A stretch of 64,000 nucleotides of DNA from Candidatus Heimdallarchaeum aukensis (GTDB taxonomy: Archaea > Asgardarchaeota > Heimdallarchaeia > Heimdallarchaeales > Heimdallarchaeaceae): the NCBI GenBank assembly GCA_021513695.1, contig CP084166.1, positions 2,816,001-2,880,000 on the forward strand, given 5' to 3'. Of the stretch, positions 1 to 43,751 are shown one piece after another. The translations under genes and the position numbers were made by a program. Below the pieces are notes generated by a model. The model saw only the letters and a list, made by a program, of their open reading frames with translations, had not been told where the DNA came from and made no database searches. Numbering within the stretch: the first letter of the stretch is position 1; each line of letters opens with the position of its first letter.

Positions 1-406
1 CGAATGGATAGCCCTTTCATCAAAAAGTAAAGAATTGCTAAAAGGAGTACAACTGTTACTGTTAAACTTGGGTATCAAATCAAGAATATTTGATCGAACA
101 AGAAAAAGAAGAGAAAGAACATTCAAGTACATAGATAAAAATGGTTCACTAAAGTATTACAACAGTGATGGAATTCTCTATGAACTGGGAATATTCGGCA
201 AAAATATTGATATATTCAAGGAAAAAATAAATTTCTTACAGAGGGAGAAAAAAGAAAAACTAGCTAACCTTAAACCAAGAAAAAGAAGAGAAGTCATCTT
301 TGAAGAGAAGATAAAGAGTATAAAATATGTTGGAAAGGACGAAGTATATGATTTAACTGAACCAAGAACATTAAGCTTCATTGCTAATGGAATAGTAAGT
401 TTAGAT
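1..406 (+). other. Intein (C-terminal part, LAGLIDADG homing-endonuclease type) inserted immediately before the catalytic-site Cys of NrdJ (extein resumes at CGEQ, Cys codon 407-409)
   Basis: 'LLKGVQLLLLNLGIKSRI' resembles the second LAGLIDADG / DOD block. 'EVYDLTEP...SFIANGIVSLD' resembles intein blocks F/G. The next residue is Cys, followed by the conserved RNR motif (normally NPCGEQ). Confidence 0.55.
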
Positions 407-1783
407 TGCGGAGAGCAGCCCCTTCTCTCTTATGAGTCTTGTAATCTAGGATCAATTAATCTTGTAAGGCATGTTAAAGATGGAGAGATAGATTGGTCTT
501 TACTTGAATCAACTATCCGTACAGCTGTTCGCTTTTTAGATAATGTTATCGATCGCAATGTTTACATTATTCCTGAAATAGAAGAGATGACCAAAGCCAA
601 TAGAAAGATAGGCCTTGGGGTAATGGGTTTTGCTGATCTACTTGTTGAGCTCGGTATAAAATATGATACAGAAGAAGCATTGGAAATAGCTGAAAAAGTT
701 ATGTCTTTCATTCAAAAAGTTGGTCGAGATGAATCTGTTAAATTAGGTGAAGAAAGAGGTAGCTTTCCTAACTTTGATAGAAGTATTTACAGAGGAAAGT
801 ACAAAGCCATGAGAAATGCAACAATCACAACAATCGCTCCTACAGGAACTATTTCTCTTATTGCTGGGTGTTCAAGCGGTATTGAACCTTATTATGCAAT
901 AGCTTTTGTGCGAAATATACTAGGTGGAAAGAAACTTTTTGAAATTAATCCCATCTTCGAAAGAATAGCTAAAGAGAAAGGATTCTACTCTGAAGAGCTC
1001 GTAGAAAAAATTTCTTCTGTTCATTCAATACAGAAATTGGATGAAATACCTGAAGAAATAAGAAAGTTGTTTGTAACAAGCCAAGATATTTCTCCAGAGT
1101 GGCACGTAAGAATCCAAGCAGCTTTCCAAAAATACACTGATAACGCTACTAGCAAAACAATTAATTTTTCGAGAGATGCTACAAAAGAAGATATCGCCAA
1201 AGCTTACAAACTCGCCCATAAACTAGGTTGTAAAGGTGTTACTGTTTATCGTGATGGTTCAAGAAAGTATCAAGTATTATCAACAAAGACAAAAAAGAAA
1301 AAGAAAGAAAAGCCAGTAGTTACTTCAGCAAAAGTTGTACCTAGAGCAAGACCAGAAATAACAACAGGTAGAACCCATAAAGTTAGAAGTGGTTGTGGTA
1401 ATCTTTACGTTACTGTTAATCAAGATGAAAATGGAGATATTTTTGAGGTATTTGTTCAAGTAGGTAAATCTGGAGGGTGTATCACCTCTCAAAGCGAGGC
1501 GATTGGAAGATTAATTTCTCTTTCACTTCGTTCGCAGGTTTCAGTTGAATCCATTGTGAGACAACTGTCAGGGATACGCTGTCCTAACCCTAGTTTCTAT
1601 AAAGGAAAAAGTATTCTCTCTTGTGCTGATGGTATAGCTTTAGTGCTTGAACAATATATACAAGGAAATCCTAACGTACGTGAATCTAATGGTTCTATCG
1701 TTTGTCCTGACTGTGGAGGAGTTTTAGCTTTTTCAGAGGGTTGCTATACTTGCACAAGCTGTGGTTATAGTAAATGTAGTTAA
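1..1783 (+). CDS. nrdJ: Class II (adenosylcobalamin-dependent) ribonucleotide reductase NrdJ, 3' portion. The ORF continues past the 5' window edge. The first ~135 codons are the C-terminal part of an intein
   Basis: Frame 2 is open from position 2 (the track's TTG at 35 is not the real start). Extein motifs: CGEQPLLSYESCNLGSINL, TTIAPTGTIS, GCSSGIEPYY, SKTINF, KGVTVYRDGSR. C-terminal CPDCGG...CTSCGYSKC zinc ribbon typical of monomeric NrdJ. Confidence 0.85.
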   Translation, partial: EWIALSSKSKELLKGVQLLLLNLGIKSRIFDRTRKRRERTFKYIDKNGSLKYYNSDGILYELGIFGKNIDIFKEKINFLQREKKEKLANLKPRKRREVIFEEKIKSIKYVGKDEVYDLTEPRTLSFIANGIVSLDCGEQPLLSYESCNLGSINLVRHVKDGEIDWSLLESTIRTAVRFLDNVIDRNVYIIPEIEEMTKANRKIGLGVMGFADLLVELGIKYDTEEALEIAEKVMSFIQKVGRDESVKLGEERGSFPNFDRSIYRGKYKAMRNATITTIAPTGTISLIAGCSSGIEPYYAIAFVRNILGGKKLFEINPIFERIAKEKGFYSEELVEKISSVHSIQKLDEIPEEIRKLFVTSQDISPEWHVRIQAAFQKYTDNATSKTINFSRDATKEDIAKAYKLAHKLGCKGVTVYRDGSRKYQVLSTKTKKKKKEKPVVTSAKVVPRARPEITTGRTHKVRSGCGNLYVTVNQDENGDIFEVFVQVGKSGGCITSQSEAIGRLISLSLRSQVSVESIVRQLSGIRCPNPSFYKGKSILSCADGIALVLEQYIQGNPNVRESNGSIVCPDCGGVLAFSEGCYTCTSCGYSKCS

Positions 1784-4484: not shown

Positions 4485-7400
4485 ATGGGGTTTGAACTTA
4501 TGAAAAAAAGGATATTTTTAGCGATAGCAATAATTATTGCTCTATTTCCGATTTATCATTCTGGAGTTAATACTCAAGCAACAACTCAACCGGTTGTTAA
4601 TAATAATCAAATAACTCCTGAAGAAATCGGAGTAGGAAGTAAACTAACCTATCAAATAACACAATTTGAATTAGGTTCTGGTTTTGATCAATTATTACAA
4701 GACATAACACAAGATCCAGAAGCACCTGATATCGAGTTTGGTTATGACGGCAGTTTAGTAGGAAGTGAAATATGGTTTTATATCAGTCTTGAAGACCAAC
4801 TGCAATTCTTCCAATACAATTACTCTGACTGGGAGTGGACTAAAGAAAACATTACTCAAAAGAATGTAATGCAAGTTTTAGCTGGAATAAAATTAAGTGA
4901 AGACTTTTCAGCTTTTGCAAACCTATCCCAACTTAATTATCCAGAAGATGCAGTAAGACAAGATGAAGCTTATTATTATGATTCTTGGCCAATGTCTCAC
5001 TTTGAAACACCAATAACAAGTGACGATTTCTGGAATCCATTCAACGAAGGTTTTATAGACGGATTTAATTGGGGATTTTCAGATGAGATAAATGAATATG
5101 ATTGGGCATGGTTCAATTGGCCTAGTCCCGATGAGTATTATGACATGTATTGGTTTGCTCGAGACTTTGGACAAATGTGGGGATATGACACTGGAAGAGA
5201 AGCAGCTATGAATGCAAGAAATGAAAACCCTGGTGATCCTTGGGGAACAGCTTGGAATGATGCTAACTCTGCTAGTGGAGCTTTTAAAGTAGGTTTCTTA
5301 GAAGGCAGAGATGATGGATATAATGAAGGAAAAGATGATTATGTAAATAATAATAGAATCCCAGATAAAACCTTTAGTAATCCTTACGACGCAACTAATG
5401 ATATAACTGATATAGGTAAAAGGCGTGGATATGACGCTGCTTGGCCAGTATATTATGATGCAGGATACTTATATGAAGGAGCACAAGAATATTTCAATGA
5501 CAGACTCTACTGGGAACTATATTGTGATACTTGGGATACCTATCCTGGTGGTTACCTAGACGGATTTAGAGATGGATATTATACTGGTGTTTGGGATGGA
5601 CAATATGACCATGACTATGGAAGCTATGGAGATAACTTCTATCCTCCAGAGGGATATTGGGATCCTCGTGATGAATATCAATGGGGATATAATGATGGTT
5701 TAGCAGAAGGGTATCAATATGGATACGATGACGGTTACAACCAAGTAAATGATTATGAACAATATATCTGGGGTATGGAATCTTATATCTGGAATGCACA
5801 TGAAGATGGTTTTCAAGTTGGAGCTCAAGATTATATAAATAATATTGGTTATGATAATTCAACATTTACATTGCCATTTTCTAGTCCAGCTGATATGTAT
5901 GAAGAGGGAGCTAATTTCATTTATGAAATGATGTATCCTAAAGCTTATGATGATGGATGGAAATATGCTTTTCTTGTAGATAGAGATGGAGACGATTTGA
6001 ATTGGTTAATGCATGAAGGACCATTCTATTACATGTATTTACCTGATGTGATTTTAACTTTACAATCTGGTTCAGTTCTACCTGTACCTACAGATATGAC
6101 AATGTTCAAAGAATTGAACATTAGCATGATGGATTACGAAATCGATTATGATTATGGTGAAAACACAGATCTCTTTACAGAACACTTTACACCTTTCAGT
6201 ATATATGCTCCTGAAAGTGATTGGGCAGAGCTAGATACTTGGGATTGGGCTTTTGACCCAGAAAGTGACATGCCAGGAGTTGCAACAACTATAGATGGAA
6301 ACATATTTGAAATGGTATTCTATTGGGAAGAAGAAAGTGGAGATATTACTTTCGAGCTTACAATTCGTTATGATATGACTACTGGAGTTTTGCAATATTC
6401 TGGTTTTAGTGTAGATTTCACAACAGAAGCAGATATGTACATTAATGTTGCAATGGAGTATGAATCAGATACACAAATCAATCTACCAACACCTGATCCA
6501 ACTTCATGGTCTTACTTAATAGATACATTTAGCTTTACTTATGAATTACCTGATGACGCTCCACCTGAAGTTATAGATGGACTAAATAATTTCAAGAATG
6601 GGGGAGAAGATGCTGTTGGAAACGCATTCATGGACGTCGATTGGATTCAACATCTTGGTCTATGGAATGAATATAACGTTACATTCAAAGATCCTAACAA
6701 CCCAACTGATGCATCAGATCCAGTTACTATAATGCAACCAACTTTATCTCCTGGAATACAAATATTGCCTGATTGGGACCTTTGGGGCGGAATTATGCAA
6801 ACTGGAGATTCTTATTTGGCTATGTCTGAATGGATAGGTAATGCTGTAGATATGTTAAGCGATGCTAACCCAACTTTTGATGCATTTAGAAATGAACTGT
6901 ACTATGAAGTGAGTTCATACCATGATTCAACCAATAATATAATGTATCTCTATGCAGGTATATCTGGAGGATATGAATTACGTGTTGAAATGCTAAATGG
7001 AGATTGGGAATGGGAAGAAACAACAGTCTCATTATACTTCAAACTTGTTTTATGGACAGCCTATGATTATACCACTGGTATTTTCTTAGGAGCTGGTGTA
7101 GAAGGAACAATAGATGAAACATTCACTTCAAATATTCCAACCTCACCTCAGTTCACACTCTATGCAGATATTGATATCAGAATCAGAGCAGATTTAATAT
7201 CAAGTATAACAAGTATAACTGACATTCTAACCTTTGCTGAAATGCCAGAAAAAGACACCGAAGCACCAATCATTTCAGATGTAACTTACAGTCCAGATAA
7301 ACCAACAGAAGAAGATGTTATTACTATTAGTGCTAATGTAACAGATGATAATGGAGTTTGTTCAGTAATCTTACACTACAAGAATGACACATCTGAATGG

Positions 7401-7676
7401 CAAGAAGTAGAAATGGTAGATGATGGAACAGGAATCTACAGCGCTGAAATAGGTCCATTTGCTGCTGATACTGTTGTAGAGTTTTATATTACTGCAACAG
7501 ATATGACAGCTGCACAAAATGAAGCAACAGCAAATAATGGCGGAACAAACTATACAATTGAAATCAAAGGAAAAGGTGTTCTTGGAATTGGATTCAATTT
7601 TGTAGATGTTCTCATTATGGGTCTAGGATTGATCAGCATAGCTTCTCTCCTTACATTAGTAAAGAGAAAGAAATAA
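4485..7676 (+). CDS. Large secreted/cell-surface protein, extremely rich in D/E/Y/W/G quasi-repeats, with an Ig-like domain and a C-terminal TM anchor
   Basis: 1063 aa. N-terminal signal peptide (KKRIFLAIAIIIALFPIYHSG). Repeated 'GYDDGY', 'GYxYGY', 'DGFxDG' and 'WxW' segments. C-terminal beta-rich 'DVTYSPDKPTEEDVITISANVTDDNGV...' Ig-like module. Terminal hydrophobic helix plus KRKK. Confidence 0.6.
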   Translation: MGFELMKKRIFLAIAIIIALFPIYHSGVNTQATTQPVVNNNQITPEEIGVGSKLTYQITQFELGSGFDQLLQDITQDPEAPDIEFGYDGSLVGSEIWFYISLEDQLQFFQYNYSDWEWTKENITQKNVMQVLAGIKLSEDFSAFANLSQLNYPEDAVRQDEAYYYDSWPMSHFETPITSDDFWNPFNEGFIDGFNWGFSDEINEYDWAWFNWPSPDEYYDMYWFARDFGQMWGYDTGREAAMNARNENPGDPWGTAWNDANSASGAFKVGFLEGRDDGYNEGKDDYVNNNRIPDKTFSNPYDATNDITDIGKRRGYDAAWPVYYDAGYLYEGAQEYFNDRLYWELYCDTWDTYPGGYLDGFRDGYYTGVWDGQYDHDYGSYGDNFYPPEGYWDPRDEYQWGYNDGLAEGYQYGYDDGYNQVNDYEQYIWGMESYIWNAHEDGFQVGAQDYINNIGYDNSTFTLPFSSPADMYEEGANFIYEMMYPKAYDDGWKYAFLVDRDGDDLNWLMHEGPFYYMYLPDVILTLQSGSVLPVPTDMTMFKELNISMMDYEIDYDYGENTDLFTEHFTPFSIYAPESDWAELDTWDWAFDPESDMPGVATTIDGNIFEMVFYWEEESGDITFELTIRYDMTTGVLQYSGFSVDFTTEADMYINVAMEYESDTQINLPTPDPTSWSYLIDTFSFTYELPDDAPPEVIDGLNNFKNGGEDAVGNAFMDVDWIQHLGLWNEYNVTFKDPNNPTDASDPVTIMQPTLSPGIQILPDWDLWGGIMQTGDSYLAMSEWIGNAVDMLSDANPTFDAFRNELYYEVSSYHDSTNNIMYLYAGISGGYELRVEMLNGDWEWEETTVSLYFKLVLWTAYDYTTGIFLGAGVEGTIDETFTSNIPTSPQFTLYADIDIRIRADLISSITSITDILTFAEMPEKDTEAPIISDVTYSPDKPTEEDVITISANVTDDNGVCSVILHYKNDTSEWQEVEMVDDGTGIYSAEIGPFAADTVVEFYITATDMTAAQNEATANNGGTNYTIEIKGKGVLGIGFNFVDVLIMGLGLISIASLLTLVKRKK

Positions 7677-11559: not shown

Positions 11560-12774
11560 ATGGCAATCTGGAGATTAATAAAAAATTCCATAAGATTCGC
11601 TTTCAGAGCAAAAAAAAGATGGGTAACTTTTGTTATTATATTTGCTCTCTTGTCAGCTTTTGTAACACTTTTTGTAAGTACTTTCAATGGTTATACAACA
11701 GAAAAATTAATGTCTCAGAAAGGGTTTTATATTAAAGCTGCAGGAACAAGTGAAAACACAGGTACAGTAACTGAGCAACAAGGAATTAACTTCCGCAATG
11801 ACATAATTGCTCTTCCTCAAGTAGAAAAAGTAACTCTATTTCGTTATTTTGATTTAGGGGATTCAATACGTATTTTCAGTGTTGAACCTGATTCACGATG
11901 GATGTTTTTAGAAGCAAAACCTTCAAAGATTGTGGATGGTAAATATATTACAAAAAATAATGAAGCTTTAGTTTCTCTTGACGCGTCAATTACTGCAGAT
12001 ATTGGAAATTTATCAGCATCATTGACTGCAACATTACATAGAGGAGAGGTGTTAAGTTTCAAAAAGGATAACAATGAACTTGATATAGCTATTGTTGGAG
12101 AAATAGAAGATACAATAAACGCTCCAGGAAAATTTAAGTTATTTGTATCGGATACAACTTTTGATCAAATCCAAGAGTATTATAGTGACAATTCTCCAGT
12201 ATTTTGCTATAGTATCGCTATTTTAGTTAAAGGGGACTTGTTTAAACCATTCAATCATGATATAAAGAATAATATTGAAGCTCTTTCTCCCCAAACAAGT
12301 ATAATATGGATTAATCCTGATGACCCTGTAGAAACAAGTCAATATGGTGTGTGGGGAGAACCCATTGTTCCAGATGCTAGAGCATCAGAAAAGCAAAGGT
12401 TAACTGACTTTTTATATTTCTTTGTAGGCATTCTAGGGGGTATGGTTCTTGTTCTTCTGTATAATGCCTTAATTGTATGGTTTAGAAAAAGAGAGATAGC
12501 TGTTTTACGTGCAATGGGCTATAAGAAAAGAGAAATAAGAATAAACTTGCTAGGTGAAAGCTTAACGATAAGTTTGTTAGGTTTCATAATTGGTCTTTCA
12601 GCTATGTTAATTTATTTCTGGACACAAGGATTCACTTTTACAAATCAAGTAATCACACCACTGACATTATTGATGTCATTTGGTATTGTAGTAGGGTTGT
12701 CAATTCCAGGATTATTAATTGCAAGTGTATCTTTTACAAGAGTTAATCCGATTCTATTGTTTAAAGCAAGGTGA
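11560..12774 (+). CDS. ABC transporter permease, MacB/FtsX-like (N-terminal TM, large extracytoplasmic domain, C-terminal FtsX 3-TM module)
   Basis: 404 aa. 'AVLRAMGYKKREIRINLLGESL' is the FtsX-domain signature. One TM at residues ~20-40 and three at the C-terminus. Confidence 0.75.
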   Translation: MAIWRLIKNSIRFAFRAKKRWVTFVIIFALLSAFVTLFVSTFNGYTTEKLMSQKGFYIKAAGTSENTGTVTEQQGINFRNDIIALPQVEKVTLFRYFDLGDSIRIFSVEPDSRWMFLEAKPSKIVDGKYITKNNEALVSLDASITADIGNLSASLTATLHRGEVLSFKKDNNELDIAIVGEIEDTINAPGKFKLFVSDTTFDQIQEYYSDNSPVFCYSIAILVKGDLFKPFNHDIKNNIEALSPQTSIIWINPDDPVETSQYGVWGEPIVPDARASEKQRLTDFLYFFVGILGGMVLVLLYNALIVWFRKREIAVLRAMGYKKREIRINLLGESLTISLLGFIIGLSAMLIYFWTQGFTFTNQVITPLTLLMSFGIVVGLSIPGLLIASVSFTRVNPILLFKAR

Positions 12775-13526
12775 AAAAAGTGAGTAGTAATGCAATATTA
12801 AGGTGTGAAAAGGTAACAAAAATTTACCGCAGAGGGCGTTCAGAATCAGTTCATGCTTTGAAAGATATAGATCTCGAAATTCGTCCTGGAGAAATAATAA
12901 TGATCGCTGGTCCTTCTGGTTCAGGAAAAACAACATTACTGAATGTTCTTTCTGGTCTAGATAAACCAACAAAAGGAAAAATATTGTTTAACGTTGCTAA
13001 GGCAAGTGAAAAATTCAAGGTAAAGGGACTAGATGAAGAAACAATCAAAAAACAAAAGTTTATAGATATTACCCAATGGGATGAAAAACAATTAACAGAG
13101 TACAGAAGATATAATGTTGGGTTCATTTTTCAAGCTTGGGAATTGATACCTACATTAAAAGCTATAGAAAATGTTGAATCAAGCCTCTATCCTTTAGATA
13201 TTCCTATAGGAGAAATCAGAGATAGAGCAAAGAAACTGTTTCGAAAAGTGCAACTATTTGACAAAGAAAATGCTTTTCCAGATCAACTTAGTGGAGGAGA
13301 GCAACAAAGAGTAGCGATATGTAGAGCATTAATTAAAGAGCCAAAAATAGTATTTGCAGATGAACCTACTGGAAACCTAGATAGTGAGACTGGAGAGCAA
13401 ATCTTAAGACAAATGAAGTTAATTAGTAGAGAAGGAGCTGCAGTAGTACTCTCTACTCACAATCTAGAATTAAGAAAGTTTGCTGATAGAGTTATTCGAC
13501 TACATGATGGTCAAATAACTTATTAA
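12771..13526 (+). CDS. ABC transporter ATP-binding protein (MacB/LolD-type)
   Basis: Walker A 'GPSGSGKTT', signature '[15 protein letters not shown]', Walker B '[12 protein letters not shown]'. It overlaps the permease stop by 4 bp. Confidence 0.9.
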
Positions 13527-13533
13527 ATTATAA

Positions 13534-15171
13534 ATGGAAGTGAAAAAGATGAGTAATATATTTTTAAAACTAATCAGCAGTGATTTTGCTGGAGAGGAAA
13601 GAGAAAAAGTAGAATATTCTGCAATAGTTGGATTTGCTTTAGACCACTTCAATAAGGGAGAACAGTTAGAAGGTATCTACATGTGTTACCTCCCCTTTTT
13701 TGGAATAAGGGTAAATGAATCAAACTTTGCAATTATTAATGCATTGGATAAAGGAAAGAATCAGCTATCAGTAAATAAAATTCCTGATTCTTCCGACATA
13801 AAGAAAATATTAAGTTCAGATATTTCGATACAAGAAAAATATAAGCAAATTGAATCTAAGCTTCTAAGAAAGAATGTAGAAACAATAGAAGTAAATGGAA
13901 TTCTGAATAGAGATGGAATACAAGGATTAGCTAAACTTTTACCACAACATACAGGAACAGCTGATAATAATTACAAGAAATTAAGTCCTATAATCTCTAG
14001 AGAGGAAGTAACTAACCAGATTCGTAAACTTCAAAATTATATTTTATCCGATATTGAAGTGGAAGAAAGAATAAATGCATTCTTAGAAGATCTTGAGATA
14101 GCAATAACTAAAGAAATCGAGAAGTTAAAGAAAGAGAGAGTAAACACAGAGAAAAAGTATGATGAAAAAATAGCTAAAAAGAAAGCAGAAATTCAACAAA
14201 AACTCAAAGAGATGGAGGTAGAAGAAAAAGCAGAACATGCTAAAATAGATAAAGAAGTAGCAAAAAATCAAGCTAATGTAATAAAAAGTTTACAATCTGA
14301 CACTAGATGGAAGCAATATGAGAATGATATCAAAACTCTAGCATCAAATTATACCAAATTTTTAGCAAAAATTAATGCTGCTAAAGATGAAACTGACTTA
14401 GAACAACTAGTGAGAGAGATAGATAATCTTCAACAAGATGTTCAATCAATAGGTGTAGGTTTAAATTCTGCTTTATCTGAAGTGAAAAACAGACATCTTG
14501 AATACGGAGATTATGAGCAACAAGGAGCAGTAGATAAGAGAAATATTTCAGAAAGACTAGAATCTTTAAGAGAAGAAGAAAGAACAGCATATAATTCAAT
14601 TGAAAATGAAAAAGAAACAGCTTTACAAGATATCGATAGAGAGATTAATGATGCCAAATCCATACTTAAAGACCTAAAAAACAAAAAGAAAGATCTTAAA
14701 AAACAAATTATGCAAAATTATGAAATGCGGGGAACTGATTTTACCTTAAACGCAGATGTATTAGGAGTAGAATCTTCAGTTAATAGTATGAATATATATG
14801 TTCCCCTAGCTATTGCTCGATATAAATACAAGAATAAACTAGGGCACATAGTTATTCCTCCATTTGAAATAGCAAACAATATGAGTAAACCAAAGAAATT
14901 AGCTCTCGTAGGAATAAATGGTAATATAGGGTTTGATTGTATAGGTATTTCCTTACTTTCAAAGGTAAAAAGAAACTTAGAATACTTACTAGATGAAAAC
15001 CAAAATTTGCAAAATGAAATAATAGGAAACAACAATGAAGTAATAGAGACTGGAGACCTGAATAAAATTAATGATGGTGTAGAACTTTTAGAACAGAAAA
15101 AGAAATGGAAAGACAAACATTCTGATAAAATTATACTTCAATATAGAAAAGTTAGAAGCTCAAGGGCCTAA
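13534..15171 (+). CDS. Hypothetical coiled-coil protein, third gene of the ABC operon
   Basis: 545 aa with no TM. A long E/K-rich heptad region (residues ~150-400) is flanked by globular N- and C-terminal segments. It starts 8 bp after the ATPase stop. Confidence 0.5.
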   Translation: MEVKKMSNIFLKLISSDFAGEEREKVEYSAIVGFALDHFNKGEQLEGIYMCYLPFFGIRVNESNFAIINALDKGKNQLSVNKIPDSSDIKKILSSDISIQEKYKQIESKLLRKNVETIEVNGILNRDGIQGLAKLLPQHTGTADNNYKKLSPIISREEVTNQIRKLQNYILSDIEVEERINAFLEDLEIAITKEIEKLKKERVNTEKKYDEKIAKKKAEIQQKLKEMEVEEKAEHAKIDKEVAKNQANVIKSLQSDTRWKQYENDIKTLASNYTKFLAKINAAKDETDLEQLVREIDNLQQDVQSIGVGLNSALSEVKNRHLEYGDYEQQGAVDKRNISERLESLREEERTAYNSIENEKETALQDIDREINDAKSILKDLKNKKKDLKKQIMQNYEMRGTDFTLNADVLGVESSVNSMNIYVPLAIARYKYKNKLGHIVIPPFEIANNMSKPKKLALVGINGNIGFDCIGISLLSKVKRNLEYLLDENQNLQNEIIGNNNEVIETGDLNKINDGVELLEQKKKWKDKHSDKIILQYRKVRSSRA

Positions 15172-16823: not shown

Positions 16824-19800
16824 TTATTTCTCTTCAGCGGAAATAGATGGATAGTCAGATAATCTAAATATTGCTTCCTTCATAGTTTCTATTAGATCAA
16901 TTACTTTTTTGTCTCCTTGTTCAAGTAAATAGTTTGTTGCTGCTTTAATTCCATCAATTAAAGGTTCTGTCATCTCATCAAACTTATACCTTGCTACGAA
17001 ACGAATTATATCGCTTATAACTACTAACCTATCTAAATGTTTTGTCATCTTTTTAAAGTATTCAGGTTCAATGTAACACTTGACTATCCAGTCTTTTCCT
17101 CCTGATATGACTGAGATATTGTCAAATCTATAAAGTGCAGTTACTTCACTCTTAGTTGAAAAAATTTCTTTAGGAATGGTTCCAAGGTCAATATAGAAGC
17201 CTTTTCTATCTGTTGACAGTTCTAAATCTCGATTTACAAACGAATCATGAATTAAACGGATATAATTGTTGATCAGTTTAATTAGAGTGTTTCCTAGAGA
17301 GCGCATATTAATATATAGATTTGTTTCAAACTCCTTTCTGGTTTTACTTTTTGTCCAGGCTCTTTTAACAGTAAGCATAGCGCTTTTAGCATCTTGTATC
17401 ATTTGATTATAAGAATCATCTATAACATAGTCTGGAATTCTACGATAAAGTAAAATGGAGAGAGCAATCTCTAAGAAGTTTTTAGGTAGCTCTTCTAATT
17501 CTCTTTCTCTTACTTCTTTAATTATTGCATCGATTTTTGTTTTACATTCTTCAACACTAGGGGTGAATTGATTGGGTTGGAGTTTTTTATAATGAAAAGC
17601 GTCATCAATCCAGTTTTCGTAATTCTTCCTAATGTAATCCAAGTGAGTATCAATTGTTCCTATTTTAGATTTTACCCAGTGTTGAATATCTGAAAATATT
17701 TTCTTATTTACAGGTTCCCAAGATTTAATCAACTTTCCTCTTATCTTTTTAAGTTCTTTTTCTGCAGAAGTGTAAAGCTTTTTAGCTTTTTCGTTATAAT
17801 GAATATCATTACTTCTTAATTGTGCAAAGGAAGAAAGCAGATCCTGCAATACTTTTTGAACTCTGCTTGAATTTTTATTCCAAATATCATAACAATTGAT
17901 ATGATAATTTTTACTTGCAAAATTTTCAGGTACATTCTTAAACTCTGGAAAAGATGGAAAAGATTCTTTTATCTCTGGTAGTAAATTGGCATTTCTTAAT
18001 TTTGATACTCTCTCTTTTTGGAATAAAGTAATAAGATTATCTAATTTAGCCACTATATCAGATTCAAATTTGAATATCTTCTCTGGATAGCTACTCATCA
18101 TTTTTCTGATGATTGAATTCTTATAACTTGAATTGAGAATCTTGTGATCAATTAAACAAGCAGTAAGTATCTCTGGGTTGGATTCAGCTTGAGAAAGAGA
18201 GAAAACGCTATTATCATATCTAACTGTTAAACCTGGTTTTAGCAACAATTCATAAACAGAAATAGCTCTCTTATCAAATTTTAATTGTATTTTACCAAAA
18301 AAACTTTTTTTGTAAACTACAGGTACAGACTTGATATATGCTTTTAGAAATCCCGTGTTTATAGCTCCACCTATTAAATCTCTTGCTGTTAGACTTAGTT
18401 GTTTACCTATTTCAAGTTCTCTCTTACGAATATCTTGAATATAGTTGGATATAATTGTTGAAAAAATGTATAATGGGATAATCTTCTTGAAAGAATTGAT
18501 GATATATAAATAGATATTACCAAGAGAAAAATTGAAGAACTGATCCTGAACAATTTTGACCAAAGTTGAGATAATTGCTCTCTCTAATGCTTTAGCAAAA
18601 ATAACAGATTCTTCAATATTTGATATTTGTAACCTTTCTCCCACACCAGCATTTTCTATAATTGAGGTAAGCTCTTTCAGGAGATTTTTGCCTACATTTG
18701 TAAGCTTTTGAATTTTGCCTATAATAAATTCTTTCTTAAGATTAAGCGTTGAACCTCCTTTCTTTGACTTCTTTACAGTTTTGATATTTTCTTCAGTAAT
18801 AATAGCAAAAGTAAAATCATTTATGACACTCCATACACTTGGAGGAAGTTCTCTCTCTTTGAATGAACCTATTAATTGACTAAAGAAAAGTCTCGCTCCT
18901 TGAAGAATCAAAGGTTCAGCATCTTCTGTTAATGCATCACAAATTATGTCTCCTTGATTGATAGGGCTTATCTTCTCTTTAATCGTTTTTTGTAATTTTT
19001 GGTATATTTTAACATCTCTAAAATCTATCAAACCCATTAATGGTTTCTTTTTTGCTATGCTTAGAATAATTTCTTTACTTAACTCATCAGCAATAAAAGT
19101 TTCTGCAGAATGGATAGCAGAAATTGAAAGTTTGGAGTAAATTGAATTTATTTTCTTGTCCAATTTTTTACCTAAATACTCATCAATTAGATCCTCTGCT
19201 TTTGGAGAATGCTTTTTTAGATAATTCTCTATTCTAGAAGAGATTTCATCTACTGCATATCTAGGATTTTTATATTGTAAGATTGCAAAAGGATTCTCAA
19301 GAGAAATAATATTTAATATGTCTTGAGAAAGCATTTGAATAATAAGTTGACGTTTAAATGAATTAATCGTTCCTTTATCCCATGACTGTTCTTCTTCTTT
19401 TAACCATGCTTCTAAGTTTTTCATTTGAAGAAGAGTAGGGTAAATATCAGGTTGTGTAGCTGCTTTTTCTATGTGGTCATTAATCAAGTTGATGAAAACT
19501 GAGCTATTTTCTTTTATGCTGATTTTTTGCCTTGCAATTGTGCAAGCATTAAGAAATGATTTGGATACATAGTCTGGGGAAACAGTTCTTCCCGATTCTA
19601 CATTATCATAAAAATTAGGTGTAAGTGTGATAAATTTACCAAATGATAATGCTAACTCCTGTACTAAACTTTCATCCTCAATAGAAATTGTATTAGCTGT
19701 TTCTGATCGAACAATATATTGAACAACGATATTTGTTTCTTCGCTAGGCATGGTAAAACTACCAAAGCGAACAAATTCGTTCTGACCAGTCATAAATTGT

Positions 19801-19970
19801 GAATCACTGACATTAACTTCTGTAGTCATTAGACTTTGCAAAGATAATAATATTCCTTGCATCATGCTTGAATCTTTAGGCAAATGACCTACTGAAGCAA
19901 AGCTTATTCCCGCATCACTACCAACAGAAATCCATAAATCATAGGGATACTCTTTACTCATATTTCTCAC
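16824..19970 (-). CDS. Large orphan protein (1048 aa), no recognisable catalytic motif. It has an N-terminal ~140-aa alpha/beta region followed by a long helical body
   Basis: A long uninterrupted ORF in otherwise well-conserved gene context. Its codon usage is similar to neighbouring genes. No Walker, HxH, or Cys-cluster motifs. Confidence 0.55.
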   Translation of the reverse strand: MRNMSKEYPYDLWISVGSDAGISFASVGHLPKDSSMMQGILLSLQSLMTTEVNVSDSQFMTGQNEFVRFGSFTMPSEETNIVVQYIVRSETANTISIEDESLVQELALSFGKFITLTPNFYDNVESGRTVSPDYVSKSFLNACTIARQKISIKENSSVFINLINDHIEKAATQPDIYPTLLQMKNLEAWLKEEEQSWDKGTINSFKRQLIIQMLSQDILNIISLENPFAILQYKNPRYAVDEISSRIENYLKKHSPKAEDLIDEYLGKKLDKKINSIYSKLSISAIHSAETFIADELSKEIILSIAKKKPLMGLIDFRDVKIYQKLQKTIKEKISPINQGDIICDALTEDAEPLILQGARLFFSQLIGSFKERELPPSVWSVINDFTFAIITEENIKTVKKSKKGGSTLNLKKEFIIGKIQKLTNVGKNLLKELTSIIENAGVGERLQISNIEESVIFAKALERAIISTLVKIVQDQFFNFSLGNIYLYIINSFKKIIPLYIFSTIISNYIQDIRKRELEIGKQLSLTARDLIGGAINTGFLKAYIKSVPVVYKKSFFGKIQLKFDKRAISVYELLLKPGLTVRYDNSVFSLSQAESNPEILTACLIDHKILNSSYKNSIIRKMMSSYPEKIFKFESDIVAKLDNLITLFQKERVSKLRNANLLPEIKESFPSFPEFKNVPENFASKNYHINCYDIWNKNSSRVQKVLQDLLSSFAQLRSNDIHYNEKAKKLYTSAEKELKKIRGKLIKSWEPVNKKIFSDIQHWVKSKIGTIDTHLDYIRKNYENWIDDAFHYKKLQPNQFTPSVEECKTKIDAIIKEVRERELEELPKNFLEIALSILLYRRIPDYVIDDSYNQMIQDAKSAMLTVKRAWTKSKTRKEFETNLYINMRSLGNTLIKLINNYIRLIHDSFVNRDLELSTDRKGFYIDLGTIPKEIFSTKSEVTALYRFDNISVISGGKDWIVKCYIEPEYFKKMTKHLDRLVVISDIIRFVARYKFDEMTEPLIDGIKAATNYLLEQGDKKVIDLIETMKEAIFRLSDYPSISAEEK

Positions 19971-20088
19971 ATAACCTTAATGTTCCCCAGACACTAGATC
20001 TAATATATAAAGCGTGTCTTATATTCTTTTCGAGTGAAATTACTCCGAGAACTAGTTTGTTTACATCATTTTTAAATGATTTTTTAGA

Positions 20089-22775: not shown

Positions 22776-23498
22776 TTAGAAATAAAATTGCTCATCTACA
22801 TGTACAATTATTCCATTTTTTGTAATAGTGAACGGTCTTTCCATCATCTCATGCTTTTGTCCACGCATTTTTCTAATATTAAGACTTCTTACACCTAGTG
22901 TGTTGACAAATTTGTAATTAAGGACAATTACTCCTTGACTCATGAATTCTTCTACACCAAAACGGGAAACTTCGGTTCCTGCCATCTCGCTGGTTAATAT
23001 AGTTGTACAATCCAAGGAACTCATAACTGCAGAAAGCTTAAGTATTTCTCTTCGAATTTGTTGTTCACTAGCCATCGAAAGAGCTAGAGCAGTAATGCTA
23101 TCGATAACTACTCTTTCTGCTCCAATTGCATCTATAGTTGTAATTAATTGATTAATGAGTTCATCTACATCCACAGGAGTTTGATATTTCTCGTTTGAAC
23201 TCACTCCTGCTCTAGGACTAAAACCATCAATTATAACTAATAAATCCTGTTCTTCAAGTTCTCGAAGATTCCAACCAAAATTAAGACACTGCTGTCTTAC
23301 GTGCTCTGGGTGTTCATCAAATGAAACAAAAATACCTGTTTCTCCCGCCGAGACAATACCGTGATAGAGAAATTGGTGACCAAAAGTAGACTTTCCTCCA
23401 CCAGCAGGCCCTGCTAATAATATTGTTCTCCCTTTGGGAAGACCGCCACCCAAAATTTTGTCTAGTCCTGGAATACCTGTTTCTACTAATTCCATCAT
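22776..23498 (-). CDS. KaiC/RecA-superfamily ATPase (single KaiC-like domain). Start trimmed to the internal Met
   Basis: 'GIPGLDKILGGGLPKGRTILLAGPAGGGKSTF' (KaiC-type Walker A) and Walker B 'LLVIIDGFS'. The track's N-terminal extension 'MCKNLLFPIYYFFVV' is probably spurious. Confidence 0.75.
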   Translation of the reverse strand: MMELVETGIPGLDKILGGGLPKGRTILLAGPAGGGKSTFGHQFLYHGIVSAGETGIFVSFDEHPEHVRQQCLNFGWNLRELEEQDLLVIIDGFSPRAGVSSNEKYQTPVDVDELINQLITTIDAIGAERVVIDSITALALSMASEQQIRREILKLSAVMSSLDCTTILTSEMAGTEVSRFGVEEFMSQGVIVLNYKFVNTLGVRSLNIRKMRGQKHEMMERPFTITKNGIIVHVDEQFYF

Positions 23499-23582
23499 TA
23501 CCACAAAAAAATAATAAATAGGAAATAATAAGTTTTTGCACACTGCAAAGTCTTTTCAGAATCAAATTAAATATTCTTAAAT

Positions 23583-25427
23583 TCAGTCTATAATGCCATC
23601 CTCTACTTCATCAACGTTGATTATTTCTTCTCTCTTAGGTAAATGCCAACCTCCTCCTGGAGTTTTAATAACTACCGTTGGTTCACTAGTTTGATCAATA
23701 AAAATTAACAGTTCTACGTTGAATTTCTTCTTTACATATGAAGAAGCTTCCACCACAGTATATTTTCCATCCACTAAATAAATAATTGAGCCTAGTACTG
23801 CTTTTTCCACACAAGAGCTCTTTTCATCTACAATTCCTACCCTCGCGGTTAAGTCCCAGTTCATGGTCCTAATTAAAGGAACAAATCCAATATTCTTGAT
23901 TTTTATTGTTTCTGAAGAAAGAACGTAATAGGGTGATCTCATTTCTTTTGGATATTCTTTAAGAAGTTTTGGCGATGAACTTACAAACTTTTTTAGCGCA
24001 GATTTGGAGCTCCTTAGTTTAAGAACAGGTTTATAGGAATCTTTGATTTTTGGAGATTTTTTAATAAGCTTATTATAATAATCCTCAATGGTTGTTTTCA
24101 ATTCTGGTATTCCAGAGAAAAATAGCCAAGTAAGAAATTCTAAACTTAAAATGCATAATCCATAGTTCTCAGAATTAAGAGCAAGATGAAAAGATTGTTC
24201 AAACATTAATCGTGATTGAAAAGTTTTCCCTTGTTGCATGAACTTAAAACCAATTTGATTAATGAACTCTATGTCTTCATAACTTCTTGGTATAGCTTCT
24301 TCTTCAATTTCTCCATTGCTCAAAACTACAGAAAGTAGAATAAGTGTGTGTACTAAATTAGCTAAATCTGGTCTGTTTCTCCTAACACATAAATCTTCAA
24401 AGGCTGGAGTAAAATAAGAAGGAAGACGGTGAATTTGTTCTGTTAACAAGAGTAAAATTATTCTTAGAAAATGGATTTCCATATCTAAATCAGTAACAAC
24501 AGCAGTGCTCTGGAAGAAGATCATTAAAAGTTCATCCATGTAGACTCTTCCGAGTTCAAGTTCTTTATTTTCAATAAGACAGATACATGCAAGATAAAGA
24601 AGACGACTTAAAAGAACCAAAGAGGAATTGTAAATTGGATGATCTTCTATATCAGAGGAAGCTAAACGCCAATCTACTATAGCATCTATTATCTCTCTTA
24701 CTCGAGAAATCAGTTCTGGTTGTAGTTCTTCGTACTTTTCTTCTCTGAAATCTGTTTCAAAAATACTGAGATCCTCCCACACTTCAGAAATTAATTCTTT
24801 TAGTTGCAAAGCTTGTATAGAAAACTCTTCTTTACTGATGTCTCCTTCTTTGATTTCACTTATCTTTTCTTCATATTCAGCTTTAATTACAGAAATTGCT
24901 GAATCAAAAATTTTAGAGATGCGTTTAACAGGGTCATAACGGTTTGTACTGCTTACAGAATAACGAATCTCGGCACTAAAAAGTTTTCTTTCTAATTCTT
25001 GAAGAAATTTAAGAGAAGAAGAATCATCACACTTCTCAATAAGATAACGAACAAAAGCACTATCAATATAGGATTGAATGTTTACTAATTCTGCAGTTTC
25101 AATAAGTTTAATGTCGCTACTAACTATCTTTGCTTTGAGTTTGTAAGCTACATAAATTACACTCAAATCAGGTTTTTGAGGAACACTAGGTGTGAGTGAA
25201 TAAAGTCTTGTTAGAAATTGGTTAAAATCTTCTGTATCTACCTTTTTAACTGTAATATGTGGTTCAAGTTCTCGAAAAAGAAAGTGTCTCATCTCACCTT
25301 TTATATAAGAAGTGATGACAATCTTTATCTTAAGTTTCTTTACTATTTGAGCAAACTTTGAGTACTTTTGGGGTTCAGATTGAAAACCTGAAATAAAGAA
25401 GTTAGTGTCAACTACAAATGTTTCCAT
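23583..25427 (-). CDS. PIN-domain protein with a large alpha-helical (TPR-like) body and a ~100-aa beta-rich C-terminal domain. Function unknown
   Basis: 614 aa. N-terminus 'METFVVDTNFFIS' (PIN Asp1) ... 'KIVSSDIKLIE' (PIN distal Asp). Its stop is 40 bp upstream of the KaiC-like gene on the same strand. Confidence 0.5.
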   Translation of the reverse strand: METFVVDTNFFISGFQSEPQKYSKFAQIVKKLKIKIVITSYIKGEMRHFLFRELEPHITVKKVDTEDFNQFLTRLYSLTPSVPQKPDLSVIYVAYKLKAKIVSSDIKLIETAELVNIQSYIDSAFVRYLIEKCDDSSSLKFLQELERKLFSAEIRYSVSSTNRYDPVKRISKIFDSAISVIKAEYEEKISEIKEGDISKEEFSIQALQLKELISEVWEDLSIFETDFREEKYEELQPELISRVREIIDAIVDWRLASSDIEDHPIYNSSLVLLSRLLYLACICLIENKELELGRVYMDELLMIFFQSTAVVTDLDMEIHFLRIILLLLTEQIHRLPSYFTPAFEDLCVRRNRPDLANLVHTLILLSVVLSNGEIEEEAIPRSYEDIEFINQIGFKFMQQGKTFQSRLMFEQSFHLALNSENYGLCILSLEFLTWLFFSGIPELKTTIEDYYNKLIKKSPKIKDSYKPVLKLRSSKSALKKFVSSSPKLLKEYPKEMRSPYYVLSSETIKIKNIGFVPLIRTMNWDLTARVGIVDEKSSCVEKAVLGSIIYLVDGKYTVVEASSYVKKKFNVELLIFIDQTSEPTVVIKTPGGGWHLPKREEIINVDEVEDGIID

Positions 25428-33608: not shown

Positions 33609-34685
33609 TTAAATAATTCTAGAACCGTTTACAAACTCGTTAAACCAAATATGGGCGTTGTGCCTGTCTGTATAAACAGGAGGAGCTTTAAAACCATAAG
33701 CACAGACGGAAGAAAGAGGACCTCCAACAGCTCGGTTAATAGCTATTTTCACACCTCGAATGACATCAAATAGGGTCGCAGCTCCATTAGGTCCATCTAA
33801 TGTTTCTAAACGAATGTCAATCTTAATAGGTGTTCCAATAAATGTCTCTCCATAGATCCAAAAATGACCAATACGACGATTACCAAGAAACTCAAGATAG
33901 TCAGAAGTCCCAGAAGCAATATTGATCTGACCTTGAAAAGCGTTTTTTATTGTATTTTCTTTTACTGTACGCTTGTAAGCTTTACGGTCGTCATCTAAAG
34001 TGTTTAGAGTTTCTAATCCTCCACTAACATCTAGTTGATAAGTATCTTTAATCCTGATTCCTTGTTCTGTCAAAATTTCTAAAATACCCTTATGGAGAAC
34101 AGTGCCACCATATAGGCTTTGAAGATCGTCTCCAACTAATGGAATATTAGCTTGACGGAATTTACGAGCCCAAAGAGGGTCACTAGCAATGAAAGTGGGA
34201 GTACAGTTAACAAAAGCAATCTCTGCATCTAAAGCAGCTTGAGCATAAAATTCTACAGCTTTTTCTGCACCAGTAGGTAAAGCGCAAATTAACATCTCTG
34301 CTCCAGATTCTCTCAAACGTTGCACAACATCTACCTCAGGGGAGTCAGAAACCTCAATAACATCAGCTAAAGTACCAGTAATGCCATCTAAAACAGGACC
34401 TTTTTCAACAATTACACCAGAAGGTGAAAGTTCAAGAAACTTAGGGGTGCTGTTAATCGATGCAAAAATTGCCTCAGAAAGATCTTTACCTACTTTAGTT
34501 TTATCTACATCGAAAGCACCTACAATATGAATAGTATTCACTCCATAGTTAGCCATTGAGGGATGTAGCAAGTTATTACAAGCATCTTTGTTCTTACGTA
34601 AATATTCAATCCCTTGAACTAAACCAGATGCAATGTTACCAACACCAGCAATAGCGACATTAATACGTTTTTCCATAATAATCAC
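33609..34685 (-). CDS. myo-Inositol-1-phosphate synthase family protein, divergent paralog
   Basis: 358 aa. 'VAIAGVGNIASGLVQGIEY', 'GAFDVDKTKVGKD', 'LVGDDLQS', 'GPLSSVCAYGFKAPP' parallel the adjacent ino1-like gene at roughly 40% identity by eye. Confidence 0.7.
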   Translation of the reverse strand: MIIMEKRINVAIAGVGNIASGLVQGIEYLRKNKDACNNLLHPSMANYGVNTIHIVGAFDVDKTKVGKDLSEAIFASINSTPKFLELSPSGVIVEKGPVLDGITGTLADVIEVSDSPEVDVVQRLRESGAEMLICALPTGAEKAVEFYAQAALDAEIAFVNCTPTFIASDPLWARKFRQANIPLVGDDLQSLYGGTVLHKGILEILTEQGIRIKDTYQLDVSGGLETLNTLDDDRKAYKRTVKENTIKNAFQGQINIASGTSDYLEFLGNRRIGHFWIYGETFIGTPIKIDIRLETLDGPNGAATLFDVIRGVKIAINRAVGGPLSSVCAYGFKAPPVYTDRHNAHIWFNEFVNGSRII

Positions 34686-34690
34686 CTTAA

Positions 34691-35773
34691 CTAATTAGAA
34701 ACCTCCCCTTTGATAAATTTCTCAACAAGATCATGTGCAATAGGGTCAGGAATTTGCTTGGGAGGATGTTTGAAGAAGTAACTAGAAACACTCTCTAATT
34801 TTCCACCTATCCCACGATCTTTAGCAATCTTAAGAGCTCGAACAACATCAATCATAACTCCTGCAGAATTAGGAGAATCTTGAACACTAAGTTTAAGTTG
34901 AACAGTTATTGGTTGTTCACCGAAATTCTTTCCTTTAAGCCACAAATAACAAACTTTCTCATCTTCTAGGAAAGGAACATAATCACTTGGACCAATACGA
35001 GTAGGAACTTCATAAGGAATCATACTAGTAACAGCTTCAGTTTTAGAGACACGTTTTGTTTGTAGTCGATACTCTTTTTTCATATTTTCAAAATCAGTGT
35101 TTCCTCCAACGTTCAATTGAAAAGTTTCATCGATCTTTATTCCTCGCTCATGAGCAAGACGGACAAGCATACGATGAAGAATAGTTGCACCTAATTGAGA
35201 TTTTATGTCATCTCCCGCTACTGGTACGCCTTTTTCTGCAAATTTTGCAGCCCATTCTTCATTACTTGCTATAAAAGCAGGAATACCATTAGCAAAGGCA
35301 ACGTTTGCATCAAGTGCTGCTTGAGCATATATTTTTGTAGCTTCTTCAGAACCAACAGGTAAGAAATTTATTAATACATCTGTTTTAGTTTCTTTCAAAA
35401 CTTTAGCTACATCTACAGGTTTAATTTCGTTCTCATCATAACAATAGAATGATTCTCTCATGTGTGGGGCTACACCATCAGAAATGGGGCCAGGCAATAC
35501 AGTTACTCCCTTGTGTGGTACGTCAGCAAACTTATTGCACACGTTGGGTGGTTGCCAAATTGCTTCAGAAATATCTTTCCCTATTTTCATTTTATTAACT
35601 TCGAACGCTGCTACCACTTCTACATCTCTAATGTGATAAGGTCCGAACTTTACGTGCATGATTCCAGGAACAAAATCATCTTCTTTGGCATTTTTGTAAT
35701 ATTCTAATCCTTGAATTAGCGCTGAAGCGCAATTTCCTAGTCCAGCAATCGCAATTCTTACTTTTTCTGTCAT
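34691..35773 (-). CDS. ino1: myo-Inositol-1-phosphate synthase (bacterial/archaeal Ino1 type)
   Basis: Collinear with M. tuberculosis Ino1 as I recall it: 'IAIAGLGNCASALIQGLEYY', 'PGIMHVKFGPYHIRDV', 'GDDIKSQLGATILHR', 'LNVGGNTDF', 'SPNSAGVMIDVVRALKIAKDRGIGG'. Confidence 0.85.
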   Translation of the reverse strand: MTEKVRIAIAGLGNCASALIQGLEYYKNAKEDDFVPGIMHVKFGPYHIRDVEVVAAFEVNKMKIGKDISEAIWQPPNVCNKFADVPHKGVTVLPGPISDGVAPHMRESFYCYDENEIKPVDVAKVLKETKTDVLINFLPVGSEEATKIYAQAALDANVAFANGIPAFIASNEEWAAKFAEKGVPVAGDDIKSQLGATILHRMLVRLAHERGIKIDETFQLNVGGNTDFENMKKEYRLQTKRVSKTEAVTSMIPYEVPTRIGPSDYVPFLEDEKVCYLWLKGKNFGEQPITVQLKLSVQDSPNSAGVMIDVVRALKIAKDRGIGGKLESVSSYFFKHPPKQIPDPIAHDLVEKFIKGEVSN

Positions 35774-39682: not shown

Positions 39683-39752
39683 AATAATCTTTGAATGAAA
39701 CAACAACTCCATTTCAAAATCTTTTTTATAAGTTAATTTTTTACCTTCTTGT

Positions 39753-41609: not shown

Positions 41610-42218
41610 GTGATGAAAATGACAAAAGAATACAGTATGGTAATTGTTGGTGTGGGAGGACAAGGAATCCTCACTATTTCAGACATTATTTCAATAGCTA
41701 CAAGAAAGAAAGGATGGCATATACTAGGTTCTGAAGTACATGGGATGGCTCAAAAAGGAGGTTCAGTAATAACAAACTTGAAAATAGGTGAAGAACTCTA
41801 TTCTCCAACTATTCCTATAGGAGGGGCAGAACTACTAGTAGGATTAGAACAAAATGAAACTTTAAGGTATATCCAATACCTTAAACCAGGAGGAAAAGTG
41901 ATTTCAGCCAAAACTGTTCTTTACCCTGTAGGTTGGAAGAAAAACAAGAAAGCAGCTGATGAAGCTAGAGAAAAAATAGCAGAGAATCTAGCTAAATTCG
42001 ATGCAAAAGTGATAATGATTGATTCAGAAAAGTTAGCTCTAGAAGCAGGGTTGGCTTTAGCCCAAAACATAGTTATGCTAGGAGCTCTATCACAAGTAGA
42101 AGGATTTCCCTTAACTGAAGACGAGTTAAGAGAAGCTCTAAAAGAAAGAGTTCCACCAAAATATCTAGAACCAAACCTAAAAGCTTTTGAGCTTGGTATT
42201 CAAAGTATGAAATCTTAA
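41610..42218 (+). CDS. iorB: Indolepyruvate:ferredoxin oxidoreductase beta subunit
   Basis: 202 aa. 'IVGVGGQGILT' (PorG/IorB-type Rossmann-like motif). Directly follows iorA. Confidence 0.8.
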   Translation: MMKMTKEYSMVIVGVGGQGILTISDIISIATRKKGWHILGSEVHGMAQKGGSVITNLKIGEELYSPTIPIGGAELLVGLEQNETLRYIQYLKPGGKVISAKTVLYPVGWKKNKKAADEAREKIAENLAKFDAKVIMIDSEKLALEAGLALAQNIVMLGALSQVEGFPLTEDELREALKERVPPKYLEPNLKAFELGIQSMKS

Positions 42219-42313
42219 ATTCTTTTTTTCTTTTAAATTTTTCAATTTTATAATTAATCTAAAAAAATGTAATAAAAAATTGAAGTAAAAGAAAGAGAAA
42301 AATTGTTGTCAGT

Positions 42314-43496: not shown

Positions 43497-43751
43497 CAGT
43501 ATCAAGAGAAAATAAACAAGCATTATTTAAAAAACTATTCAATTCGAAAAATGAATGTTTTTTAAAATCTAAAAAATAATTAACCGTTTCTAGCAGCTCT
43601 AACCAATTTCTGTTAAATCCAAACATTAAAAACATTTGTAGCTAAAGAAGCTTTAAGTCTAAAGAATATTAAAATTAGGATTTAAAAATATAAAAACAAA
43701 AATCAAAAATAGTATTAATAAATTAGAACATAAATAAATAAACAATTTATA

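Follow-up and report, generated by a model that had tools for sequence, protein, structure and literature searches.

The locus and its gene

The window analysed here is a 64,000-nucleotide (64-kb) stretch of contig CP084166.1 of Candidatus Heimdallarchaeum aukensis, and the subject of this report is a large minus-strand gene whose product is predicted to carry a longin domain at its N-terminus, followed by a mostly helical body of ~900 residues. An earlier interpretation made from the letters of the DNA, called the sequence-only reading below, had described the gene as a very long open reading frame (ORF). This was borne out, since an uninterrupted minus-strand frame extends from a GTG at 19970 down to 16824 (16824..19970). 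The G+C content of the genome is ~31%, a composition in which stop codons are frequent, and an open frame longer than 1,000 codons is therefore far beyond chance. The product had been given as 1048 amino acids, but the start codon is almost certainly the ATG at 19961 rather than the GTG at 19970, because the close homologs all begin at the equivalent methionine (in the alignment the N-terminus of all 25 is MSK/MTK..FPYD), and the protein is correspondingly 1045 residues long.

An TTTATATA box upstream of the ATG is a candidate promoter of the longin-headed gene. The gene appears to constitute its own, monocistronic transcription unit, because in the Heimdallarchaeaceae loci the upstream gene is mostly divergent and, where the flank is present, the downstream gene convergent.

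Pfam and NCBIfam scans of the whole protein gave no family match, in agreement with the earlier statement that it has no enzymatic motif; a weak, sub-threshold Pfam match to ENTH (residues 810-901, E 0.027) was not used as evidence. There was no transmembrane segment, the highest mean Kyte-Doolittle value over 19 residues being 1.53, and no recognisable catalytic motif or domain was found in the protein. Searches of the PDB sequences with the single sequence (phmmer), the full profile and the N-terminal profile returned only a spurious match to NqrD or to a designed protein. The sequence points firmly to a soluble, cytoplasmic product that lacks a recognisable catalytic domain.

Predicted fold of the N-terminal domain

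An AlphaFold2 model was built on a 26-sequence alignment, with a mean predicted local distance difference test score (pLDDT) of 79.7 and a predicted template modelling score (pTM) of 0.57. The elements of the N-terminal region in the model were E7-15, E20-25, H32-46, E56-60, E64-71, E78-86, H94-111, H117-123 and H129-146 (E, strand; H, helix), that is, residues 7-146 form a β-β-α-β-β-β-α-α arrangement with no helix before β1. The longin fold is a five-stranded β-meander with the order β1-β2-α1-β3-β4-β5-α2-α3, in which a single helix packs against one face and the other two helices against the opposite face (PMC3747258). The predicted model, with pLDDT values of 47-89 in the N-terminal region, has the same order of elements, and its superposition on solved longin domains was scored as significant. 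The Foldseek list of PDB matches, used only qualitatively, was dominated by longin and roadblock chains. At the level of sequence profiles, the domain did not belong to any of the curated longin families (Pfam Longin, Sybindin, Sedlin_N, Clat_adaptor_s, SRX, Folliculin and others). From the model, a longin fold is predicted with reasonable support for the N-terminal domain.

The sequence-only reading had proposed an N-terminal α/β domain of longin or roadblock type with a β-α-β-β-α-like alternation. The α/β domain is real in the model, but the order of its elements, given above, is not quite the one proposed. The longin half of the proposal agrees with the order of the elements, while the roadblock half had to be given up. 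The roadblock fold is circularly permuted, α-β-β-α-β-β-β (definitions from PMC3747258 and PMC10933270), and assignment to roadblock/LC7 (PF03259) was rejected because the model has no N-terminal helix before β1.

Table 1 Positions of the gene, of the modules of its product and of genes near its homologs at other loci
Feature	Position	Strand	Remarks
Complete coding sequence	16824..19961	minus	1045 amino acids plus stop codon (ORF list, translation)
TTTATATA, possible archaeal TATA box	20004..20011	minus	Seen in the sequence itself, ~46 nt upstream of the ATG
Predicted longin-fold domain, residues 7-146	19524..19943	minus	β1-β2-α1-β3-β4-β5-α2-α3
α1 helix (DSSMMQGILLSLQSLM) and β3 strand (QFMTG), residues 28-60	19782..19880	minus	Longest near-invariant stretch of the protein
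Helical body I, residues 150-535	18357..19514	minus	~20 helices, high pLDDT (AlphaFold2)
Small β-rich insert, residues 536-590	18192..18356	minus	Six short strands, E540-588 (AlphaFold2)
Helical body II, residues 596-907	17241..18176	minus	Long helices 686-714, 722-767 and 875-907 (AlphaFold2)
Conserved basic segment, residues 716-790	17592..17816	minus	Includes the 46-residue helix 722-767
Second conservation peak, residues 825-892 (LPKNFLEIALSILLYRRIPDYV ... AW.KS..R.EFE.NLY.NMR.LGN)	17286..17489	minus	pLDDT 54-67
C-terminal α/β module, residues 910-1013	16923..17234	minus	Two β-hairpins packed on long helices
C-terminal tail, residues 1014-1045	16827..16922	minus	Conserved KEA[LI]F.LS[ED]YP motif
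Downstream methyltransferases	L033:9026-9697, L034:4979-5488, L035:9003-9638, L036:9043-9657, L038:8958-9599, L039:8940-9563
GTPase/folliculin-like clusters	L035:126-2651, L039:326-4006
YdjM-family genes	L035:4823-5668, L037:1326-2684, L040:4575-5897

Conservation of the longin elements

Conservation was scored in 26 Heimdallarchaeaceae-type sequences, otherwise 45-95% identical, and in a separate pan-Asgard alignment. The longin domain was the most conserved module in both, with a mean column identity of 0.82 against 0.72 for the whole protein in Heimdallarchaeaceae and of 0.43 against 0.32 across all Asgard members. The near-invariant stretch that contains α1 and β3 (Table 1) had column identities of 0.96 in α1 (residues 32-46) and 0.95 in β3 (residues 56-60). 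D30-Q42, L44 and M45 were invariant in the 26 sequences, and residues 28-42 were the top-ranked 15-residue window of the entire protein. Across all Asgard members, the three best windows of this length all fell inside the longin domain and E48, G59 and G67 were invariant or nearly so. The 15-residue length of α1 is that of the canonical 'short form' (PMC3747258). In canonical longin/roadblock platforms, dimers form through β3 and α1, and the GTPase binds to the face that has the single helix (PMC3747258). The alignments argue firmly that the elements of the longin platform are under the strongest constraint.

Conservation peaked a second time in residues 825-892, where windows 825-839 (0.92) and 878-892 (0.91) were among the top five and many columns between 825 and 891 were invariant in the 26 sequences. 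Invariant columns also occurred between I1021 and P1038. The β-rich insert was the least conserved module across Asgard, with a pan-Asgard column identity of 0.21.

The body of the protein

In the model the body is ~85% helical and consists of serial units resembling four-helix bundles. When helical body I was compared with the PDB, only generic four-helix bundles were found (designed proteins, ApoE and the sensor domains of chemoreceptors), and the PDB matches of helical body II did not extend beyond single helical bundles. An internal duplication of the helical body was considered and rejected, as hhalign found no internal repeats. The hairpin region of the C-terminal module spans residues 916-1013, and no recognisable longin or roadblock domain was found in residues 910-1013. 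The pLDDT in the tail was below 50 for residues 1015-1021 and 1033-1045. None of the ~900 residues after the head, comprising the helical bundles, the β-insert, the basic helix and the C-terminal α/β module, matched a solved structure, and the body of the model can be described with confidence as a novel helical scaffold.

Two parts of the body are candidate binding surfaces. The basic segment had a mean net charge of +8.7 and contained 26% lysine and arginine over the 26 members, while the other modules were near neutral or acidic, and its conserved lysines are periodic in the pan-Asgard consensus; it is possibly a surface that binds an acidic membrane or nucleic acid. The second conservation peak, residues 825-892, was modelled at low confidence and may be a partner-binding surface.

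Comparison with known longin proteins

The DENN module consists of a longin (uDENN), a central DENN α/β domain and dDENN, in that order. The sequence-only reading had extended the likeness to DENN-type regulators beyond the head, and this part of it was not sustained. The segment that follows the longin (150-535) is all-helical and not a central DENN α/β domain, there was no DENN match in Pfam, and solved DENN-family chains aligned over a domain-sized stretch at most. The tri-longin Rab guanine nucleotide exchange factors (RabGEFs), Mon1-Ccz1, Fuzzy-Inturned and HPS1-HPS4, have three consecutive longins in each subunit; the present protein has a single longin-like domain, a C-terminal module that lacks a longin match and no internal repeat. 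Longin SNAREs such as Sec22b, Ykt6 and VAMP7 are proteins of ~200 residues in which the longin is followed by a SNARE motif and a C-terminal membrane anchor. With its 1045 residues, the protein has five to eight times their length; it gave no synaptobrevin/SNARE match in Pfam and has no hydrophobic segment and neither a transmembrane nor a lipid anchor.

The TRAPP longins (TRAPPC4/synbindin, TRAPPC2/sedlin, TRAPPC2L and Tca17) are subunits of ~140-220 residues in a multi-subunit complex, whereas here one longin is fused to ~900 residues of unrelated sequence. There was no sequence similarity between the two, and no TRAPPC3/Bet3 partner was identified for the protein. In comparisons with the eukaryotic longin-headed regulators (DENN, FLCN/FNIP, SMCR8/C9orf72, NPRL2/3, Mon1-Ccz1 and Fuzzy-Inturned), the matches covered the longin domain alone, and the helical body had no counterpart in any of their structures.

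Asgard archaea have expanded repertoires of small GTPases, longins and roadblocks (PMC10933270), and their longin and roadblock domains are many and include fusions to GTPases or TRAPPC3 (PMC10933270; PMC12290439). The protein shares its lineage and fold class with the Asgard longin, roadblock and folliculin-like longin proteins (PMC10933270; PMC12290439). However, the Asgard longins described are small, are fused to GTPases or TRAPPC3, or are of the FLCN/SMCR8 type, while the members of the present family have ~1,000 residues. By the fold of its model, the protein is a longin-domain protein, and the defining features of every other family considered were absent.

Family and distribution

The protein had been called an orphan, which proved wrong. 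A word-indexed search returned 25 full-length homologs (1029-1062 residues, 45-95% identity) and one distant relative (22% identity), and those bearing names were from Heimdallarchaeaceae, Heimdallarchaeota or Asgard; a repeat search with a diverse alignment returned the same 26 proteins. Among the GTDB species representatives, scanned at one genome per species, there were 29 loci, all in metagenome-assembled genomes (MAGs) of the Heimdallarchaeota type. The closest relative was found in the complete genome of Ca. Heimdallarchaeum endolithica PR6, which is syntenic with the window and in which the protein is 94-95% identical. When 1.84 billion representative proteins were searched exhaustively with a profile, only 47 were found at E <= 1e-3, most of them 900-1,020 residues long, and the full-length members were colinear from end to end in the alignment.

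The distant members were assigned by exact look-ups to Kariarchaeaceae, Hodarchaeales, Odinarchaeota, Thorarchaeota and Promethearchaeota, and every relative with a source name was Asgard. This answered the question of whether the protein is Asgard-restricted, which had been raised by the sequence-only reading: it is confined to Asgard where names exist. The clear homology to a known prokaryotic family, for example to an SMC-like or S-layer protein, that would have spoken against that reading was not found.

Two paralogs were present in one Kariarchaeaceae MAG (locus-tag prefix ACXAD7). A further member, P0028 (1,808 residues; ENA contigs up to 2.85 Mb), is a head-to-tail tandem duplication in which the first copy is complete and the second covers only profile positions ~258-996, thus lacking the longin head. 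A word-indexed search with the longin profile yielded only fragments of the same family, indicating that no other architecture carries this head. These searches argue firmly for a family that is small, confined to Asgard as far as the source names allow and old within Asgard.

Genomic context

At most Heimdallarchaeaceae loci, the upstream neighbour was a divergent DUF211 gene beside a POR/ABC block, and the downstream gene, where the sequence was present, was a convergent YggS gene, a MacB-like ABC system or pyrBI. Unlike in most of the loci L004-L031, the DUF211/POR alpha-beta/twin ABC exporter block lies ~22 kb away in the window (36053-42622) and in Ca. H. endolithica PR6, a displacement that indicates a lineage-specific rearrangement; the upstream neighbour in both is a PNP/UDP phosphorylase gene.

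The divergent subfamily, in which the homolog has ~975 residues, was sampled at six loci that include one each labelled Promethearchaeota, Hodarchaeales, Thor and Odin. A methyltransferase of 169-223 residues was encoded directly downstream on the same strand at all six, with gaps of 15-130 bp. These MTS/PrmA-type enzymes scored 80.7-94.9 bits against TIGR00537 (HemK2/MTQ2; cut-off 87), and the four that were checked further were HemK2/Mtq2-like with an NPPY motif. A DRG-type GTPase gene (MMR_HSR1+TGS) came next at three of the six loci. The pairing of the genes is ancient, since the methyltransferases share only 25-35% identity among themselves.

This old pairing would be explained if the protein were a translation- or ribosome-linked factor, the partner or substrate of a HemK2/Mtq2-type glutamine methyltransferase and of DRG, with a head resembling the SRX domain of SRα and a basic helix directed to the ribosome or RNA. 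The automatic name given by the Joint Genome Institute (JGI) to one member, P0033, places it in a 'ribosome-binding protein' family; however, this is an unreviewed label that probably stems from the lysine-rich helix. Moreover, the methyltransferase adjacency is absent in the Heimdallarchaeaceae loci, including the window, and in the Kariarchaeaceae-type loci, archaeal housekeeping genes often cluster without a functional link, and the protein has no RNA-binding domain and, in contrast to SRα, no SRP-type NG GTPase domain. A role in translation is regarded as unlikely.

At two loci, L035 (Thor) and L039, a Ras/Arf-family GTPase, a folliculin-like longin of 433-437 residues and a protein of 137-146 residues were encoded 2-4 kb upstream of the homolog; the lineages of the two loci are distant from each other. 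The two folliculin-like longins carry the FDE.(A)GPVL GP motif, and the one at L039 reaches PF11704 at threshold.

A possible longin platform

We tentatively propose that the protein is a scaffold with a longin platform to which a small GTPase or some other partner would bind, an analogy that is plausible but falls somewhat short of probable. The protein would be a non-enzymatic, soluble scaffold of ~1,000 residues with the longin as its functional head. Through α1 and β3, the head would pair with a second longin or roadblock domain, either in a homodimer or in another protein, and the longin pair would present its single-helix face to the partner. By analogy with the longin/roadblock platforms, this partner would most plausibly be a small GTPase of the Ras superfamily. 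The helical body of ~900 residues would act as a spacer or a scaffold and hold further partners in place, possibly at a membrane, which the basic helix could bind, and the 825-892 surface would position other components. Dimerisation, the binding of a GTPase and a role at the membrane or as a scaffold are all inferred.

Several considerations led us to favour the platform model, 1) the most conserved elements, α1 and β3, are the dimer and GTPase-binding elements of canonical platforms (PMC3747258), 2) all named members of the family are from Asgard, a lineage rich in GTPases, longins and roadblocks (PMC10933270), 3) a Ras-family GTPase and a folliculin-like longin are encoded near the homolog at L035 and L039, 4) the protein has no transmembrane segment and no Pfam or NCBIfam domain and 5) the basic helix is conserved across the family.

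Other observations weigh against the model. The gene appears to be monocistronic, and none of its neighbours at the Heimdallarchaeaceae loci examined (where flanks were present) is informative; there is no small GTPase gene in the window, and the GTPase cluster was near the homolog at only two of the ten loci examined outside Heimdallarchaeaceae, with unrelated genes in between. Longin domains also perform functions that are unrelated to GTPases. The GTPase-activating protein (GAP) longins of the FLCN/SMCR8/NPRL2 type have a GP motif in the β1-β2 region and a catalytic arginine finger (PMC12290439); this assignment was rejected, since neither the close nor the pan-Asgard alignment has a GP or a conserved arginine, the β1-β2 turn being GSDAG, or S/T-x-x-G in distant members. 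The fold itself is taken from a predicted model with an N-terminal pLDDT of 47-89 and a loop, residues 46-55, below 50. Foldseek found no match of the full model in the PDB at E <= 0.001, Pfam found none for 23 N-terminal domains at E <= 10, the N-terminal profile matched no longin among the PDB sequences, and hhalign gave a probability of 0.1% in the comparison with Asgard folliculin-like longins.

The last of these points raise the question of whether the longin fold is an artefact of the modelling and the domain has instead a novel α/β fold that is only superficially longin-like. Such an artefact would be in keeping with the moderate to low pLDDT over residues 30-60, the shallow alignment of 26 fairly close sequences behind the model, the lack of sequence-level support and the non-significant Foldseek E-values. 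Set beside the order of the elements and the superposition on solved longin domains, it is considered quite improbable.

The head could also be a generic module of the broad profilin/PAS/GAF/longin-like shape, used for interaction, for oligomerisation or for a small ligand, on a structural or membrane-associated scaffold that has no link to GTPases, in which case the bundles would form a cytoskeleton-like or membrane-coating assembly. The serial helical units of the body and its conserved basic helix would suit such an assembly, phytochrome GAF/PAS and sensor domains were also among the weak Foldseek matches, most loci have no GTPase neighbour, and a YdjM-family (PF04307) membrane hydrolase was the divergent upstream neighbour at three loci from two subfamilies. 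However, the order of the elements is exactly that of a longin, and conservation peaks on the elements of the longin platform and not on a ligand pocket, so that this explanation is doubtful, although it deserves to be kept in mind.

The longin-platform model can be taken a step further. A cryptic longin heading a large scaffold might be a single-chain archaeal counterpart of the large eukaryotic assemblies, TRAPP-like or Mon1-like, that contain longins and regulate GTPases or tether membranes, acting with Asgard Ras/Arf/Rag-like GTPases at membranes; this more specific version is rather unlikely.

Other genes in the window

The sequence-only reading had noted a Vps22 homolog in this DNA, and an EAP30 gene (Vps22/Vps36-like, ESCRT-II; Pfam 43 bits) was indeed found at 42726-43523 on the minus strand, directly adjoining the DUF211 gene. 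A second large ORF on the plus strand (4485-7676), encoding 1063 amino acids, had no Pfam or NCBIfam match and was syntenic, at 33-35% identity, in many Heimdallarchaeaceae loci; no kinship was found between its product and the longin-headed protein. The genes for an FtsX-like permease, an ABC ATPase and a Pfam-less ORF of 545 amino acids (11560-15171, plus strand) are kept together in many Heimdallarchaeaceae loci, and the 545-residue protein, which is 36-41% identical between genomes, is probably a component of this MacB-like system.

The N-terminal end of the large subunit of ribonucleotide reductase, whose gene (35-1783, plus strand) extends past the start of the window, has intein remnants (a sub-threshold match) and a LAGLIDADG homing endonuclease. 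Myo-inositol-1-phosphate synthase is encoded twice at 33609-35773 on the minus strand, by tandem paralogous genes with products of 358 and 360 residues. At 22776-25427, also on the minus strand, a 614-residue protein with a weak, sub-threshold match to a PIN domain at its N-terminus adjoins a single-domain KaiC/RecA-like ATPase; the rest of this PIN-like protein, which is large, matched no family.

Significance

The longin fold itself is known, and what is new is an Asgard-specific family in which a longin domain is joined to a novel ~900-residue body. Because neither Pfam nor sequence profiles detect the family, surveys of eukaryotic signature proteins that work from sequence would miss it. 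Its architecture has been kept from Heimdallarchaeaceae to Hodarchaeales, Odin, Thor and Promethearchaeota. If the link to the methyltransferase and DRG is functional, there would be the unusual case of a longin domain tied to factors associated with translation; should neither the GTPase platform nor the methyltransferase link hold, the protein would be a lineage-specific one with a familiar interaction domain. The family is a clonable candidate for finding Asgard GTPases or other partners of the longin platform. Longin/roadblock platforms are at the core of the control of membrane traffic in eukaryotes, and their Asgard relatives bear on its origin.

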